Shown piece after piece: positions 16,009 through 23,216 of a DNA stretch of 44,740 bases. The stretch lies in the sequence record OR896838.1, one strand, 5' to 3'. The notes under the pieces were generated by a model. The model did no database searches. It was not told where the DNA came from and saw only the letters and a list, made by a program, of their open reading frames with translations. Source of the stretch: Escherichia phage McMelon. Made by a program: the position numbers and the translations under genes. How positions within the stretch are numbered: the first letter of the stretch is position 1; each line of letters opens with the position of its first letter.

Positions 16009-16616
16009 CCACCTTTAAACTATACGGCGTCTTAGGACGTCGTTTCGGTAAAGTGCATAAGCTGGACTGCTTCACGCCGGGCGAGGGTATCACCGGCCTG
16101 TGTGTGAAGTTACCAGGCCTACAGGACTTTTTAATGTCGGCCCACCTGGACAACATGATGTTCAAAGTGCGCAAGGGCAATCACACTATGACCGGCTACG
16201 ATGAGTTGGGCGAGTTCCACGGCGACCGCGTAGTGACCATCGCGCCGGTTATGACTGGCGCAAAAAGCGGACTGGGCCAATTGCTGGCGGGGGTAGCAAT
16301 CGTGGTGGCGTCGTTCTATACCGGCGGGCTTGCGACTGCCGCTTTCGGAGCTTCAGCTGCGACCGCTGCCGCTATCGGTACAGCGACGTTTTCGTTTGGG
16401 ATGTCGATGGCGCTGGGTGGCGTTATGCAATTGCTGTCGCCACAACCGAAAGGATTGCAGACCCGGCAGGACGTGGATAACAAGGCGTCGTACGCGTTCG
16501 GCGGACCGGTAAACACTACCGCGCAAGGAACGGCACTTGGGGTATTATGGGGCGAGCGTGAGATCGGCGGCGCTATTATTTCAGCCGGAATCGTAACCGA
16601 GGATTTGAACGAATGA
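15999..16616 (+). CDS. tail assembly protein I-like
   Basis: 205 aa; Gly/Ala-rich hydrophobic C-terminal half; position between K-like and J-like genes. Confidence 0.6.
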   Translation: MAMTTFKLYGVLGRRFGKVHKLDCFTPGEGITGLCVKLPGLQDFLMSAHLDNMMFKVRKGNHTMTGYDELGEFHGDRVVTIAPVMTGAKSGLGQLLAGVAIVVASFYTGGLATAAFGASAATAAAIGTATFSFGMSMALGGVMQLLSPQPKGLQTRQDVDNKASYAFGGPVNTTAQGTALGVLWGEREIGGAIISAGIVTEDLNE

Positions 16617-19600
16617 CGATTATCTACGACGTCACAGGCCATAAAGGCGGCGGCGGCAAACAGCACACCCCGCAGGAAACGCCGGACAGCCTGCATTCGC
16701 TGGCTAAAATCCGCATCTTGCTTGCGCTGGGGGAAGGGGAGTTCGAAAGTATTACCAGCGCCAGCGAATTGCGGCAGCGAGTATATCTGGACGGCACGCC
16801 GATCCAAAACGCCGACCTGTCGGAAAACTTCCCAGGCGCGCGCGTGGAGTTCCGCCCCGGCACACAGCACCAGGACGTGATCCACGGATTTTCAGCGGTG
16901 GAAAGTGAGCAATCCGTCGGCGTAAAACTGGAAAACGGCACGCCGTGGGTGCGCCAGATTAACGACACCAGTCTTGACGCCGTGCGCATTCGTGTTGGTA
17001 TCCCAGCTTTGTACACCAGCGAAGATAATGGCGACCTGGTGGGCGGGCGCATCGACTATAAGATCGTTGTATATACGGATAACGCCGACCCGCGTGAGTT
17101 TACCTTCGCTGCCGTTGGCAAAACAATGTCGCTGTATGAGCGGGACCACCGCATCGAGCTACCGCCGAACGTTAACACCGGCTGGCGCGTGGAAGTTCAC
17201 CGCACAACGGCAGATTCCACATCGGCGAAAGTGGTGAACGATATCCAGGTACAATCAATCACTGAGATTATCGACGCCCGCCTTCGCTACCCGCTAACAG
17301 CGCTGTTGTTCGTTGAGTTCGACGCTAAAGCGTTCCAGAACATCCCGCGCGTATCCATTAAGTGCAAAGGACGAAAAGTTCTAATCCCGAACAACTACGA
17401 CCCGATTAATCATACTTATTCTGGCGACTGGGACGGGACGTTTAAACGCGCATGGACGGATAACCCGGCGTGGCACTGGTATGATATCTGTATTACGGAG
17501 CGCTTCGGCCTCGGTCGCCGGATAAAGCCGCAAATGCTAAACCGTTACGCGCTCTACCAGATTGCGCAGCGCTGCGACCAGATGGTAAGCGACGGAAACG
17601 GCGGACGGGAAATCCGCTTTAAGAATGATATGTACATCCAGTCGCAGACCGACGCATGGACCGTGCTTAAGGATTTAGCAGCCATCTTTGCGGGTATGAC
17701 CTGGTGGGGAAACCAGATGTTGAATATCGTCAGTGACCAGCCGGTCGCAGCGGTATCGCACACTATCACCAACGCCTCGGTAATTGATGGCAGATTCGAC
17801 TACGCGTCAGGGAGCCAGAAAACTCGCTATTCCACGTTCGCGGTAGCATACGGCAACCCGAAAAACCACTACGATGATGCCATCGCAACGGGGCAACGTG
17901 TCGAACTGGTACGCCGCCATAAGATTAACCGTCTCGATATAACGGCGATCGGCTGTACGCGTGAATCAGAAGCGCAACGCCGGGGGCACTGGGCGCTAAT
18001 CTCCAACCAGCTTGACCAGCAAGTTAGCTTTAAAGTCGGCATGGAAGGGCTGTTTTTTATCCCAGGAAGCGTAGTGGCGATCGCGGATACTAACATTTCC
18101 GGCGGCTTCGAGACACGCGGCGGACGCCTGTTGTCAGACCCAGGCACGCGTACTGTGCTGAACACAGACAGCGAAATCACGTTCCGCCCAGGTGATAAAT
18201 TCATGGTACGCACCGATAGCGGTAATGTGGAGACTCGCGAGATCGCCAGCGTCAACGGCAACAAGGTCACGCTAAAAACTGCACTGGACGCCGACCCGAT
18301 TCCCGATCAACCGTTTTGCGTTGACGGCGATGATATCCAGTTGCAAAAGTTCCGCATCACCGACCTGGAATACGACGACGCTACCAGCACTTTTTCAGTG
18401 CGCGGGATTGAGTACAACGATAGCAAATATGATGCCGTTGATAATGGCGCTCGCCTTGACCCAGGCATCTTTACGCAAGTGCCTGACGGCGTAATGAAGG
18501 GGCCGGAGTCAGTGACCATCACCCCGTCGCAGATTTCATCACAAGGCCAGCTAATCACCAACGTGGATATTGTCTTCCCGCCGGTGAAGGATGCCGTTGT
18601 TTATGAAATCCAGTGGCGACGTACCAGCCTGCAGAATATGGCGATCCAGTGGGGTAACGACTGGGTGAACATCCCACGCACGGCATCGAACGGCGCGCAC
18701 ATCCCCAACGTGTTCTCCGGTAACTATCAGGCACGCGTCCGCGCAATCGGTATGGGTGAAATCTCGTCCCCGTGGGTGTCGTCCCCCATCACGCCGATCG
18801 AAGGTCGCCTCGGGGGGCTTAATGCGCCAATCATCACCAACGCTATTTCAGGTTTGCACCAGATCCTATGGAAGTGGAACCACAACAACGCCGCGACGGA
18901 TATATCTTACACAGAGCTTGAAGTGCGCAAGACGGGCGAAACGGAATGGAAATTCCTGTCCAACGTCCCATATCCGGGGGCGGAGTATGCGCAAACGTCG
19001 CTGGAGTTCGGCATTTACCAGCAGTTGCGCGCCCGCGTAGCGGATAAAATCGGAAACCTGTCTGACTGGTCCGCCCCGTTTGAAGGCCAGGTGAGTGACA
19101 AAGTCGACGAATACATGAAGGGGCTTGATAACGAGTTCTTGACTTCCGAAGATGGTAAACACTTCCAGGAAGCAATCGACACCATGCCGCAAGGCATTTA
19201 CGAGGCTATGCTAACCGACGCCCAGCAGCTATTCATCGCCCGCGCCGAATATCAAGGGATCTACGCAGAAATCAAGGTGGCGTATAACGTGGCGGTGGAT
19301 GCTAACGAGGCCGTGGCGCAACTGGAGACGTTGATCGGCACGCGCCTTGACGATGCGGAAGCGTCAATCCACACGTTGCAGACCGCGCAAAGCACACACG
19401 AACAAGCGTTCGCCCAGTACCAGCAGACTGTTGCCGCTAAATTTGGGGAACAGGAAGCTGCCATCCAGCAGGTACAAACGGCAACGGCAGACGTAGCGGG
19501 CGCACTGGCGGAGTACAAGACCCAGGTAGCGGCACAGTTCGACCAACAGTCCGCAGCTATTGAGCAGAAGATGACGTCTTCGTTTAACCATACTGGCGGT

Positions 19601-20032
19601 AGTGCCACATACAGCCTTAAGGCTGGCGTGACGTATAACGGGACTTACTACGATGCCGGTATGCAGCTTTCCGTCGTGGCGGAAGGTGGCGCGGTTAAAT
19701 CCCGCATCGCGTTCAAGGCGGACCAGTTCTACATCATGCACCCATCTAACGGGTCGCTTTCGTCCGCGTTTATTGTAGACGGCGGGGCGGTGTACATTGA
19801 CACGGCACGCATCAAGGACGCGACTATCAACTTCGCGCAGATCACGGACACGCTTCAGTCGAATAACTACGACGGCAGCACGCGCGGATGGCGCTTAGGG
19901 AAAGACGGAACGTTTATCAACCTGGGAACCGGCAACGGCGGCGCGATGAAACAGACGAACACGCAAATCAGCGTCAGGGATGGAAACGGCGTTCTACGCG
20001 TGCAGATTGGTGAAATCACGGGTAGTTGGTAG
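16613..20032 (+). CDS. host specificity protein / central tail fibre (lambda J-like)
   Basis: 1139 aa; N-terminus (GHKGGGGKQHTPQE...) resembles lambda J N-terminus; size and synteny. Confidence 0.8.
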   Translation: MTIIYDVTGHKGGGGKQHTPQETPDSLHSLAKIRILLALGEGEFESITSASELRQRVYLDGTPIQNADLSENFPGARVEFRPGTQHQDVIHGFSAVESEQSVGVKLENGTPWVRQINDTSLDAVRIRVGIPALYTSEDNGDLVGGRIDYKIVVYTDNADPREFTFAAVGKTMSLYERDHRIELPPNVNTGWRVEVHRTTADSTSAKVVNDIQVQSITEIIDARLRYPLTALLFVEFDAKAFQNIPRVSIKCKGRKVLIPNNYDPINHTYSGDWDGTFKRAWTDNPAWHWYDICITERFGLGRRIKPQMLNRYALYQIAQRCDQMVSDGNGGREIRFKNDMYIQSQTDAWTVLKDLAAIFAGMTWWGNQMLNIVSDQPVAAVSHTITNASVIDGRFDYASGSQKTRYSTFAVAYGNPKNHYDDAIATGQRVELVRRHKINRLDITAIGCTRESEAQRRGHWALISNQLDQQVSFKVGMEGLFFIPGSVVAIADTNISGGFETRGGRLLSDPGTRTVLNTDSEITFRPGDKFMVRTDSGNVETREIASVNGNKVTLKTALDADPIPDQPFCVDGDDIQLQKFRITDLEYDDATSTFSVRGIEYNDSKYDAVDNGARLDPGIFTQVPDGVMKGPESVTITPSQISSQGQLITNVDIVFPPVKDAVVYEIQWRRTSLQNMAIQWGNDWVNIPRTASNGAHIPNVFSGNYQARVRAIGMGEISSPWVSSPITPIEGRLGGLNAPIITNAISGLHQILWKWNHNNAATDISYTELEVRKTGETEWKFLSNVPYPGAEYAQTSLEFGIYQQLRARVADKIGNLSDWSAPFEGQVSDKVDEYMKGLDNEFLTSEDGKHFQEAIDTMPQGIYEAMLTDAQQLFIARAEYQGIYAEIKVAYNVAVDANEAVAQLETLIGTRLDDAEASIHTLQTAQSTHEQAFAQYQQTVAAKFGEQEAAIQQVQTATADVAGALAEYKTQVAAQFDQQSAAIEQKMTSSFNHTGGSATYSLKAGVTYNGTYYDAGMQLSVVAEGGAVKSRIAFKADQFYIMHPSNGSLSSAFIVDGGAVYIDTARIKDATINFAQITDTLQSNNYDGSTRGWRLGKDGTFINLGTGNGGAMKQTNTQISVRDGNGVLRVQIGEITGSW

Positions 20033-20069: not shown

Positions 20070-20372
20070 ATGGCTTTTGGAGTAGAAACATGGGACGCGC
20101 AAGGGCGTCCGAACAACTACGGGATCAAGCCGGTGTCGGTTGCCGGAATTATCAAACTGGCTCAAGGTCAAACATGGGGGGCGTGGTCGTTCAATATTCC
20201 GTCAGGTATGAAAGTAGGTTTTGCGGTTACTCTGGACGTAGGAGGCACTACGGTCGGTCGGGCGATCCGCGCCAGCGGGAACACGATAACAGTATCTGCG
20301 GCAAACAGCGCCGGTATTGGAAACTACCCAGCGTCAGAATGTGAGGTAGTAGTTTTTGTGGAGAAAGCGTAA
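20070..20372 (+). CDS. hypothetical tail-associated protein
   Basis: 100 aa, RBS GGAGG, between J-like gene and fibre genes. Confidence 0.5.
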   Translation: MAFGVETWDAQGRPNNYGIKPVSVAGIIKLAQGQTWGAWSFNIPSGMKVGFAVTLDVGGTTVGRAIRASGNTITVSAANSAGIGNYPASECEVVVFVEKA

Positions 20373-20374
20373 AA

Positions 20375-21046
20375 ATGGCAAACTTCGGCGCGTTAATCGA
20401 TAACAACAACGGCAACCCATTCGTCACGCCAAACTCAACGCCATTCGTGCTCTATGCTAAGGTGTCGGCAAATTCAGTTGACGCAGGCGCGGCTTATAAG
20501 ACGGCTAGTGGCGCAGTGGATATCCCCGCGAACTATCCGGCGATGGTGTTTATGCGGTCAAACAACCGTTGCGTCTTGGCGGCGTCACGATCAGGTAATC
20601 GGATTATATTTAGCGGAAGCATTCAGGGTAAGAATAACCCACATTTTACCGTCACGGCGTACGTATTCGCGAGATTTCCGCAACCGCTGCCGAAATGGGG
20701 CTTTGCTATTTGGGACGCTAGCGGTACTTGCATACTAACCAACGAAAGCAAGGTTCTCACCGATCTAGTCACTGTCGGCAGCTTCGGTAGTAACGGGGGG
20801 ATCAACATAGACCAGACGCTGCCGGGTAAGTACGCGGTATCGCCTATGTTAATGGGCGCTACTCTGATCCAGATCTTTGTACAAGGGCAGCCGCAGATTA
20901 TCCAGATCTCGGCAGGGGCTGGGGCTTACGACAACGGAAGCGGCACTCGCATTAACGCCGTCGCTACGCGGGCGGGGTCTGGTAGCATCGCCGGGTATCA
21001 AAACACCGGCGTTGCGCTGACAGCAATTAACGTTGATGGGATATGA
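20375..21046 (+). CDS. hypothetical tail-associated protein
   Basis: 223 aa, Gly/Ser/Asn-rich; synteny only. Confidence 0.5.
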   Translation: MANFGALIDNNNGNPFVTPNSTPFVLYAKVSANSVDAGAAYKTASGAVDIPANYPAMVFMRSNNRCVLAASRSGNRIIFSGSIQGKNNPHFTVTAYVFARFPQPLPKWGFAIWDASGTCILTNESKVLTDLVTVGSFGSNGGINIDQTLPGKYAVSPMLMGATLIQIFVQGQPQIIQISAGAGAYDNGSGTRINAVATRAGSGSIAGYQNTGVALTAINVDGI

Positions 21047-21072
21047 ATAAGCCCCTTTCGGGGCTTATTTGC
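21047..21072. terminator. putative bidirectional terminator
   Basis: AAGCCCC-tttc-GGGGCTT hairpin between convergent genes; T-rich flank. Confidence 0.55.
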
Positions 21073-21283
21073 AGGTTGTGCTTTTGAAGTGGTCAACTGA
21101 CACATACTGGAAGTTAAACGGGTAGCCAGCCCTAAGCATTTTGTGACCGCTAAAATCTGCTACCCCAAACACGGGGACTGAGTAGTCCAAGCCGCTATTC
21201 TGGTATGTCGCGTCGCAGACTTTAGCTGGCATGTTGGCACAACCGGACAAAAGAACCGCACAAATCATAATTAAAGTTTTCAT
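21065..21283 (-). CDS. small outer-membrane lipoprotein (candidate Cor/Llp-like superinfection exclusion protein)
   Basis: 72 aa from ATG with AGGAGA RBS; signal peptide MKTLIMICAVLLSGC with lipobox; antisense to and embedded among tail fibre genes. Confidence 0.6.
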   Translation of the reverse strand: MKTLIMICAVLLSGCANMPAKVCDATYQNSGLDYSVPVFGVADFSGHKMLRAGYPFNFQYVSVDHFKSTTCK

Positions 21284-21363
21284 GGTATCATCTCCTATAT
21301 TTGGTTGAGTTTTAGTATTACACCTCTCGACCAGGATTGCAACCAATTTATGAGGATTCAGCT

Positions 21364-23187
21364 ATGGCAGCGGGTACACTATCCGTAACGAATAACAGCA
21401 AGGCGGTTGTTGGGGTCGGCACAACGTTTACCTCGTTTAACGCTGGCGACTTCTTAACGCTGGTGGTAGGACAAATCCCCTACACCGTAGCAATCGCGTC
21501 CATTGAAAGCGACACCGCTCTTACGCTGGTGCTGCCGTTCGACGGCCCATCGGCAACCGGCCTTGCGTGGGATGGCGTTACGCGCGATACCATGTCGCTG
21601 GCAACGATGGGCGTAACCGTACAGGCACAGAAAGCATTGCGCTTGATGATTGCAGATGAAAACAACTGGCGTGCAATCTTCGGCGACGCTGAAGAAGTCA
21701 CAGTAACGTTACCTAACGGGCAGGTAATGCAGGGTATGTCATGGGGCTATCTGTCGCAGTTGATGAAACAGATCGACCTAGTGGAGATGCGCAACCTGCA
21801 ACAACAAGCTGCCGCATCGGAAGCAGCCGCGCAGGGCTTCCGCGATCAGGCCGAAGGCTTCAAGACCGAGACGGCGGGCATTCGCGACGCCACCAATCAG
21901 ATTAAGGCGGATACGCAGGCGATCCACGACGCCACTAATACCATCAAGACGCAGACTGACCAGATTAAGACTGATACTCAGGCCATCAAGGACCAGACGA
22001 ACCAGATCAAGACTGACACCGGCGTTATTCGTGACGAAGCCAATATGGCGAAGGCGGACGCGCAAGCCGCCAGCACTGCCGCGGAGGGATTTCGCGACCA
22101 GGCCGAGGAATGGGCGCAAAGCGTTAACGCGGATAACCTGCTAACCAAATCCGGCAACCTCGCGGGGCTTGCGGACAAAGGTGCGTCGTGGGCTAACCTC
22201 ATGCCGTCCGGCCCGCTTCGAGTAGGCGCTGATCCCGTCGACAATCTGGACGCTGCGACTAGAGGATGGGTGTGTCGCGGTCTTGATGACGTGGGGGTGT
22301 GGGCCTTACGCAATAACTATGCTTCGGAACCCGCTGGCGGCGCAGAAGTATACGGCGGTCGCTTCGACTCATCTGCGAACGTCGCAGGGGTCGAAAAATA
22401 CAGAATGTCGCTGCAACTTCAGGGATTTAATAACGTAGACGCCTGGACACGTTTGGTTACCGCGAACGCCCCCGGCATGGTGAACGCGGCGTCGTGGGAC
22501 TTTAAGTACGATGGTAAGTTGCTTTTCAACAAAGGATTGGTTCCATCATCCACCTCGGCGTCGCCCGGTAACACCTATGTCACCCTTGCGAATACATGGA
22601 GTGACAGCCAATACTCGAACCACGTAGGTTTTGTCGGAGGGGGAACTGGGGTGTCTAATGGTGGGTGGCGTAACTTTATTTCGTTCGGGGCGCTGATCCA
22701 CCCACCAACCGGTAACTCACACCCCCACGCTATGATTGCGCAGGTCTTTGACTATGATTTGGCGTCGGGGGTACAGCCCAACGGCGATAGCATTCGAAAC
22801 ACAACATTCAACCCCGAAGCATATGATATTACCTTCGGCAACAACTCAGGGACTGTTAACTATATTTTCGCAAAGTCACCAGTATCCGATAGGGCGCTGA
22901 AGCATGATATCGCCAGGATCGATACTCAAGTTGCGTACGATAACGTTATGGCGATGGAATACTCTTCCTTTGTTTATAACTACGACAAAAAGGAGACGGT
23001 CAGACGTGGTTTTATCGCGCAGCAGTTGGAAGAGATCGACCCGCAGTATGTTCGTAAGTACGCCGACGCAACGGGTAAAGAGTTTCTGGCATTAGATGAA
23101 AACGTCCTGTTACTTGACCTTGTCGCGACTGTTCAGCATTTGGCGGCGAAGGTTGAGGCGTTAGAAAGTAAGTTAGCGGAGAAATGA
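21364..23187 (+). CDS. side tail fibre protein with C-terminal intramolecular chaperone (peptidase S74-like) domain
   Basis: RBS GAGGA; internal 11-aa repeats; C-terminal region (ALKHDIARID...AQQLEEIDPQYV...) resembles auto-cleaving chaperone domains of T5 L-shaped fibre and K1F endosialidase. Confidence 0.75.
   Translation: MAAGTLSVTNNSKAVVGVGTTFTSFNAGDFLTLVVGQIPYTVAIASIESDTALTLVLPFDGPSATGLAWDGVTRDTMSLATMGVTVQAQKALRLMIADENNWRAIFGDAEEVTVTLPNGQVMQGMSWGYLSQLMKQIDLVEMRNLQQQAAASEAAAQGFRDQAEGFKTETAGIRDATNQIKADTQAIHDATNTIKTQTDQIKTDTQAIKDQTNQIKTDTGVIRDEANMAKADAQAASTAAEGFRDQAEEWAQSVNADNLLTKSGNLAGLADKGASWANLMPSGPLRVGADPVDNLDAATRGWVCRGLDDVGVWALRNNYASEPAGGAEVYGGRFDSSANVAGVEKYRMSLQLQGFNNVDAWTRLVTANAPGMVNAASWDFKYDGKLLFNKGLVPSSTSASPGNTYVTLANTWSDSQYSNHVGFVGGGTGVSNGGWRNFISFGALIHPPTGNSHPHAMIAQVFDYDLASGVQPNGDSIRNTTFNPEAYDITFGNNSGTVNYIFAKSPVSDRALKHDIARIDTQVAYDNVMAMEYSSFVYNYDKKETVRRGFIAQQLEEIDPQYVRKYADATGKEFLALDENVLLLDLVATVQHLAAKVEALESKLAEK
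21877..22041 (+). repeat. tandem 33-bp (11-codon) repeats inside tail fibre gene
   Basis: Five consecutive units of pattern xIKxDTxxIxDxT, flanked by duplicated GFRDQAE-coding segments. Confidence 0.55.
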
Positions 23188-23191
23188 GAAT

Positions 23192-23216
23192 AAGGGGCCA
23201 TACGGCCCCTTTTTTA
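23192..23216. terminator. rho-independent terminator (bidirectional)
   Basis: AGGGGCC-atac-GGCCCCT hairpin with T-runs on both sides between convergent genes. Confidence 0.7.

Follow-up and report, generated by a model that had tools for sequence, protein, structure and literature searches.

The window analysed here comprises the 44,740 nt of sequence record OR896838.1 from Escherichia phage McMelon. The last gene of its rightward structural operon is an intact open reading frame on the + strand (Table 1), the product of which is 100% identical to the NCBI entry 'tail fiber protein' of Escherichia phage McMelon (Dhillonvirus). Upstream lie the gene for a J-like tail tip protein, two small ORFs and a lipoprotein gene, and a hairpin downstream separates the fibre gene from the convergent, leftward genes of the - strand. 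A Pfam search with four small neighbouring ORFs yielded no match. Two antisense ORFs on the - strand (21778-22119 and 21978-22313) were rejected as genes because they lie across a conserved structural gene that is already annotated and because nothing speaks in their favour.

The first in-frame start codon after the upstream stop is TTG at 21337. The ATG at 21364 was favoured over it because a Shine-Dalgarno-like sequence is placed at a spacing of 7 nt and because this start agrees with the 607-aa protein at NCBI. All residue numbers given here follow this 607-aa numbering. The original prediction had placed a real ORF at the correct coordinates (21364-23187), while its residue numbers, which ran up to 616, had been counted from the TTG and are higher by 9.

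In a profile search, the protein matched PHROG 1980 'tail fiber protein' at E 1.6e-122. Megablast recovered 148 phage records, nearly all of them Escherichia Dhillonvirus phages, with AV129 as the best match (95.2%); the AV129 fibre is 94% identical to that of McMelon over the full length. The gene is syntenic with bas16_0028 of GeorgBuechner, which is annotated as 'lateral tail fiber protein' and encodes a fibre with only 53% overall identity to the McMelon protein. Its position is also the same in RuthEpting/Bas85 (Gp29), JLBYU60 and AV129, and the gene order is shared with Pubbukkers. Full-length homology and the location after the J/RBP/exclusion-lipoprotein module place the protein among the Dhillonvirus lateral tail fibres of PHROG 1980, in line with its earlier description as a side tail fibre. 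The gene was thus already annotated, and the coiled-coil/tip/intramolecular chaperone (IMC) architecture of Dhillonvirus lateral fibres has been published (Humolli et al.); the McMelon fibre has the same order of coiled-coil stalk, tip and IMC (PMC11990801; PMC12309495).

Table 1. Features of the lateral tail fibre gene of phage McMelon and its surroundings. Positions refer to the window, residues to the 607-aa protein.
Feature	Position	Strand	Remarks
J-like tail tip protein	16613-20032		Pfam GpJ and tail-tip domains
Two small ORFs	20070-20372 and 20375-21046		between J-like gene and lipoprotein
72-aa lipoprotein	21065-21283	-	directly before fibre gene
Shine-Dalgarno-like GAGGA	21352..21356	+	7 nt 5' of ATG; read from sequence
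Lateral tail fibre gene	21364..23187	+	607 aa plus stop; ORF list, PHROG 1980, synteny
Putative N-terminal virion-attachment (anchor) domain, residues 1-138	21364..21777	+	beta-rich, highly conserved across genus
Alpha-helical coiled-coil stalk, residues 139-253, ~17 nm	21778..22122	+	autocorrelation, shuffles, hydrophobicity, AF2
Direct repeat copy 1, encodes AAQGFRDQA	21826..21854	+	proximal edge of heptad array
14 clean in-phase heptads, residues 156-253	21829-22122	+	heptad layout
Direct repeat copy 2, encodes AAEGFRDQA	22078..22106	+	12 heptads downstream of copy 1
Conserved neck/collar, residues 254-285 (NLLTKSGNLAGLADK...)	22123..22218	+	boundary of switch to other distal modules
Variable distal beta-rich region, putatively receptor-binding, residues 286-507	22219..22884	+	identity profile, modules, AF2
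Peptidase_S74 / intramolecular chaperone (IMC/ICA) domain, residues 508-607	22885..23184	+	long terminal helix 579-606
Predicted autoproteolysis site and dyad, Ser508 (22885-22887) and Lys513 (22900-22902)	22885..22902	+	PV-SDRALK
Bidirectional intrinsic-terminator-like hairpin	23192..23211		8-bp stem, 6 GC pairs, T-run on both strands

At the C-terminus, residues 508-563 match Pfam family PF13884 with 43.8 bits (gathering score 22, E 3.1e-11), covering positions 1-57 of the 58 profile positions. A Ser-Lys dyad with S-x4-K spacing (S508-DRAL-K513) marks the start of the domain, and neither residue varies among 51 aligned full-length homologues. A search of 1.84 billion representatives returned 439 matches, out of which we took 29 diverse C-terminal regions to build a profile for comparison with the PDB. 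This profile matched the fibre protein LtfA of phage DT57C (8hqz_d) at E 3.2e-50, a putative tail fibre (8jov) at E 1.9e-15, the ICA domain of MyRF (7dc3) at E 2.2e-10, 6f45, deposited as 'long tail fiber distal subunit' (S16 gp37), at E 1e-8 and 3gud, deposited as 'neck appendage protein' (GA-1 gp12), at E 0.0026. DT57C LtfA was reached at E 2.7e-15 with the single sequence as well, and the resemblance claimed before is borne out by these matches for T5-type L-shaped fibres. T5 pb1 (4uw8) and endoNF were not reached by the single-sequence phmmer search against the PDB. In the comparison with MyRF, the profile motif 'SDerlK' falls on 'ADLRAK' in the crystallised S587A construct. In endoNF, the counterparts of MyRF S587/K592 are S911/K916, the catalytic dyad, without which cleavage fails (PMC8326128). 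The McMelon domain has the IMC fold with a C-terminal trimerising helix and resembles pre-cleavage IMC structures. Its membership in the S74/IMC family, proposed from the letters alone and to be checked against S74 profiles, is confirmed by sequence, dyad and fold.

By analogy with these relatives, the domain is probably self-cleaving. Cleavage would occur N-terminal to Ser508 through the Ser508/Lys513 dyad, after IMC-driven trimerisation and folding of the tip, and would yield a mature fibre of 507 aa (53.8 kDa) and a released fragment of 11.4 kDa. Alternatively, the mature fibre might keep the uncleaved domain, which would then act as a structural or trimerisation cap. Lysate proteomics of the Dhillonvirus EE09 would accommodate this, as it detected the fibre without telling cleaved from uncleaved protein (PMC10673088). 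A permanent cap seems unlikely to us, however, given that the catalytic Ser and Lys do not vary among the 51 homologues, that they align with positions at which mutations block the cleavage of MyRF and endoNF, and that the fold is that of IMC structures before cleavage.

At the opposite end, residues 1-138 have a mean identity of 0.80-0.94 to 120 homologues. Within this part, residues 1-72 showed similarity to the N-terminal end of 'distal tail protein gp20' (PDB 23gd_B) at E 3e-4; the AlphaFold2 (AF2) model is poor over residues 1-138. DT57C LtfA is the closest solved relative of the fibre, and its N-terminus is anchored in the tail tip, followed by a three-helix coiled coil (PMC10713586). 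By this analogy, residues 1-138 of the McMelon protein may attach the fibre to the virion.

The segment between anchor and neck is a stalk with a period of seven residues. Self-comparison of residues 155-254 gave identities of 27/93, 32/86, 25/79, 17/72 and 21/65 for lags of 7, 14, 21, 28 and 35 residues, respectively, and none of 20,000 shuffled sequences reached the value of lag 7 or of lag 14. If the protein is laid out in sevens, the pattern [T/A]-x-x-[I/F]-[K/R]-x-[D/E/Q] runs through 14 consecutive units, with A in two units and W in one as the exceptions at position 4. This corresponds to the a/d core and the e/g salt-bridge pattern of a coiled coil, with Thr/Ala in register a, Ile/Phe in d, Lys/Arg in e and Asp/Glu/Gln in g. 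Thr at position a is atypical of classic coiled coils, and the packing detail is predicted here. The hydrophobicity power of residues 139-253 is 97.7 at a period of 3.5 and 11.3 at 3.6. AF2 predicts one unbroken helix for residues 139-253 (pLDDT 60-92), from which, at 0.148 nm per residue, we calculated the length of the stalk. On the basis of the lag identities, the 3.5-residue hydrophobic period and the AF2 helix, the stalk is a canonical coiled coil of about 14 very regular heptads (about 16 in phase), without phase breaks. Since the IMC family is trimeric and the stalk of LtfA consists of three helices (PMC10713586), the McMelon stalk would form a parallel trimer.

On the DNA level, the array matches itself at 41% of positions for a lag of 21 nt and at 49% for one of 42 nt, with a background of 27-34%. 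Spacings within the direct-repeat families of the array are 42, 63 and 252 bp, each divisible by 21. The slightly stronger signal at lags 14 (protein) and 42 (DNA) suggests that the array may have grown by duplication of two-heptad units. Tandem Repeats Finder reported nothing between 21000 and 23500, even with a minimum score of 30; the repeat is therefore conserved at the protein level and degenerate at the DNA level, to the extent that its periodicity had to be derived from autocorrelation.

The duplicated GFRDQAE segments described earlier are present at residues 158-164 (21835-21855) and 242-248 (22087-22107). They are encoded within a pair of direct repeats of 29 nt that are 86% identical and 252 bp apart. 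Because 252 bp equal exactly 84 residues or 12 heptads, the two GFRDQAE copies are in register. The fibre of Pubbukkers has 523 aa (607 minus 84), and a DNA alignment with this single record revealed a clean deletion of 252 bp, the junction of which lies inside the 29-nt repeat pair. The 29-nt repeats have therefore served as a recombination substrate at least once.

For a wider view on length variation, 120 homologue clusters were compared, five of which have an unrelated N-terminal part, leaving 115 with a homologous stalk. In 99 of these (86%), the stretch that corresponds to residues 130-275 is as long as in McMelon. The remaining 16 differ by -7 (eight clusters), -14 (two), -21 (three), -84 (one) or +28 residues (two diverged proteins), hence by -1, -2, -3, -12 or +4 heptads and in every case by whole heptads.

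The distal part behaves differently. The mean identity of the 120 homologues to the McMelon protein lies at 0.66-0.94 as far as residue 280 and at 0.31-0.50 thereafter; in Dhillonvirus lateral fibres the N-terminal 280 residues, heptad stalk included, are 80-94% identical to McMelon. The drop in the identity profile falls at residues ~270-285, at the neck with its motif NLLTKSGNLAGLADK (residues ~258-272), and most megablast matches of the relatives stop at query nt 816-898. This neck segment is also common to DT57C LtfA, residues 480-581. Among the 69 homologues in which the neck motif could be anchored, at least 11 distal modules were found that are unrelated or less than 50% identical; this number is a lower bound since the neck-motif expression missed 51 of the 120 homologues. 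A few of the distal modules have no S74 domain. The McMelon distal half (residues ~286-507) is thus one allele among at least 11 in Dhillonvirus. Given the identity drop, the ends of the megablast matches and the number of modules beyond a conserved stalk, the main variation, as read from these alignments, lies in the replacement, at the neck, of the complete distal module that follows residue ~280, and not in repeat number.

Residues 286-507 themselves have a mean identity of 0.31-0.43 to the homologues, and the AF2 model shows antiparallel beta strands with pLDDT values of 43-90. In the profile search, residues ~286-507 were homologous to residues 770-957 of DT57C LtfA, a segment that is unresolved in the 8hqz cryo-EM map (PMC10713586). 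With a mean pLDDT of 57.6, the AF2 model of the full-length monomer is of low quality, and Foldseek with this model matched the IMC only. Since structure searches with a monomer model returned no significant solved structure for the distal region outside the IMC, a ligand can be proposed by analogy with the literature, which points to the O-antigen glycan as the probable one. Dhillonvirus phages need the lateral fibre to get across the O-antigen layer and the central fibre to bind a porin; on rough strains they can do without the lateral one (PMC11990801). The O-antigen as a facultative primary receptor is known from genetics for Bas83-85 (PMC11990801).

Other readings of the stalk have to be weighed against the heptad coiled coil. 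The original prediction saw five tandem 11-residue repeats, encoded by 33-bp DNA repeats, at 21877-22041. This location does fall inside the array (21829-22122), but the unit is a heptad (21 bp) with a 14-residue super-period. Hendecads are conveyed by visual impression, as IK-D-T recurs and cuts into 11-mers look superficially alike. The layout in elevens is patternless, however, and self-identity of residues 155-254 at lag 11 is 6/89 (7%), the background level, compared to 29-37% at lags 7 and 14; the lag-11 value was reached by 17,128 of the 20,000 shuffles. Compared with the 97.7 at a period of 3.5, the hydrophobicity power is 0.5 at the hendecad value of 3.67 and 6.0 at 11. DNA self-identity at lag 33 is 35%, and a 33-bp spacing is absent from every direct-repeat family of the array. 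The stalk indels of the relatives, which are always multiples of 7 and never of 11 residues, exclude an 11-residue unit once more. With autocorrelation and indel quantisation both refuting it, the hendecad retains practically no probability.

Repeat number had also been supposed to be a likely site of variation in fibre length and host range. In a strong form, the array would be a contingency locus in which slipped-strand or recombinational changes in repeat number provide the main route to changes in both. Whole-heptad length variants do exist in the 16 clusters mentioned, and the loss of 12 heptads in Pubbukkers, with a junction inside the flanking 29-nt repeat pair, is a case of recombinational change, so that stalk length does vary to this extent. 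Against a contingency locus stand the failure of Tandem Repeats Finder to detect a DNA tandem repeat and the identity of only ~41% between adjacent 21-bp units, which are too degenerate for slippage. Moreover, 99 of the 115 clusters keep the stalk length even with a wholly different distal half, and a link between stalk length and host range is a matter of inference. We therefore regard such a locus as quite improbable. A narrower version, in which the 29-nt repeats are maintained as a recombination substrate and a switch between a long and a short stalk (-12.4 nm) tunes the reach of the tip into O-antigen or capsule, appears very doubtful. If it held true, stalk length would be a second, heptad-quantised host-range variable that is independent of tip exchange, and occasional single-heptad steps would add to the tuning for layers of different thickness.

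Returning to the heptad stalk with distal exchange, the gene very probably encodes a homotrimeric, modular lateral tail fibre composed of an anchor, a heptad stalk, an exchangeable tip and a putatively self-cleaving IMC. Residues 1-138 would anchor the fibre to the tail tip, and residues 139-253 would form a parallel, three-stranded alpha-helical coiled coil that serves as a rigid spacer of ~17 nm. The conserved neck (254-285) would link this stalk to the variable beta-rich region 286-507, which, as in characterised relatives, may bind a surface glycan (O-antigen) reversibly. With such binding, the phage could first pass through the O-antigen layer and then engage its porin receptor by means of the central fibre. 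The C-terminal 100 residues would drive trimerisation and folding of the tip before they are released. Host range would evolve mainly by recombination that replaces all parts beyond the neck, while the stalk changes occasionally and by whole heptads only, the 12-heptad deletion between the 29-nt GFRDQAE-encoding repeats being an example.

Compared with DT57C LtfA (PDB 8hqz chain d, 1076 aa), the McMelon fibre is much shorter (607 aa). It belongs to the lambda-like tail of a small siphovirus, in contrast to the L-shaped fibres of the T5 family on a T5 tail, and its N-terminal anchor is unrelated by sequence to the one of the T5-family fibres. An LtfB-like branch or an LtfC-like collar gene was not identified for McMelon. 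With endoNF (3gw6), GA-1 gp12 (3gud) and the MyRF ICA (7dc3), the C-terminal domain shares the S-x4-K dyad, the fold and the terminal trimerising helix; the passenger upstream of the IMC is a fibre tip, as opposed to the sialidase beta-propeller or triple beta-helix in S74 systems. In endoNF, a basic residue upstream, Arg897, assists the cleavage.

Beyond a correct annotation, the significance of these results is limited. A small new observation is that the stalk changes its length by whole heptads only and that a natural deletion of 12 heptads maps to the 29-nt repeats. For modelling and engineering, residues 1-507 should be taken as the mature fibre, while the IMC should remain in cis so that the protein can fold. 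If host range is to be engineered, the natural exchange boundary is the neck at residues ~270-285. Stalk length should be altered in whole heptads, for which nature tolerates a range from -12 to +4.

In the lateral tail fibre (607 aa, 21364-23187), the N-terminal residues 1–72 (21364-21579) resemble the N-terminal 72 residues of chain B of PDB entry 23gd (E 3e-4), deposited under the name 'Distal tail protein gp20'. This similarity points to a putative attachment module that the McMelon fibre has in common with another phage's protein bearing the name Dit. At the other end, the homologue clusters P0020-P0024 possess a neck, tip and intramolecular chaperone domain (Peptidase_S74) like those of the McMelon fibre, with 76–86% identity across the aligned C-terminal 60–69% of this query, joined to an unrelated N-terminal part. 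These clusters include a 53.7 kb contig of E. coli O70:H38, and at least one copy originates from a bacterial genome record. Therefore, the distal module circulates on other backbones as well, which are possibly prophages.

Some Dhillonvirus-type fibres among the homologues combine the conserved anchor and the heptad stalk with a terminal module that lacks the S74 domain (clusters P0080, P0083, P0087, P0106, P0111, P0112, P0114 and P0117 as well as P0038, P0041 and P0090). These terminal modules belong to Pfam family PF25670 or carry no domain. Such fibres presumably require another folding route or a separate chaperone.

Features surrounding or overlapping the fibre gene are compiled in the following table.

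Features in the vicinity of the McMelon lateral tail fibre gene
Feature	Coordinates	Strand	Remark
Small ORF, 100 aa	20070-20372	+	Immediately 3' of the J-like tip protein gene
Small ORF, 223 aa	20375-21046	+	Follows the 100-aa ORF, 3' of the J-like tip protein gene
Lipoprotein gene, 72 aa	21065-21283	-	Mechanical ORF reaches 21346
Antisense ORF, 113 aa	21778-22119	-	Runs through the repeat region
Antisense ORF, 111 aa	21978-22313	-	Runs through the repeat region
Hairpin, perfect 8-bp stem	23192-23211		GC-rich, T-runs on both strands; starts 5 nt past the fibre stop codon

Neither of the two small ORFs matched in Pfam; in the Dhillonvirus literature their locus is described as the bona fide receptor-binding module. 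With its counterpart in phage GeorgBuechner, the 223-aa protein shares only 52% identity, and therefore this locus constitutes a second variable locus. The terminal (porin) receptor may differ. Proteomics of an EE09 lysate detected a 224-aa hypothetical protein whose position in that phage corresponds to that of the 223-aa ORF (PMC10673088).

Between this module and the fibre gene, on the opposite strand, the 72-aa lipoprotein gene encodes the lipobox LLSGC. Its product had no match in Pfam and is 94% identical to Pubbukkers gp27, annotated as a 'putative superinfection exclusion protein'. The two antisense ORFs are most likely not genes but a side effect of the stalk's codon content, which is biased and repetitive. 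The hairpin is likely a bidirectional terminator that separates the leftward genes, which are convergent, from the late structural operon.
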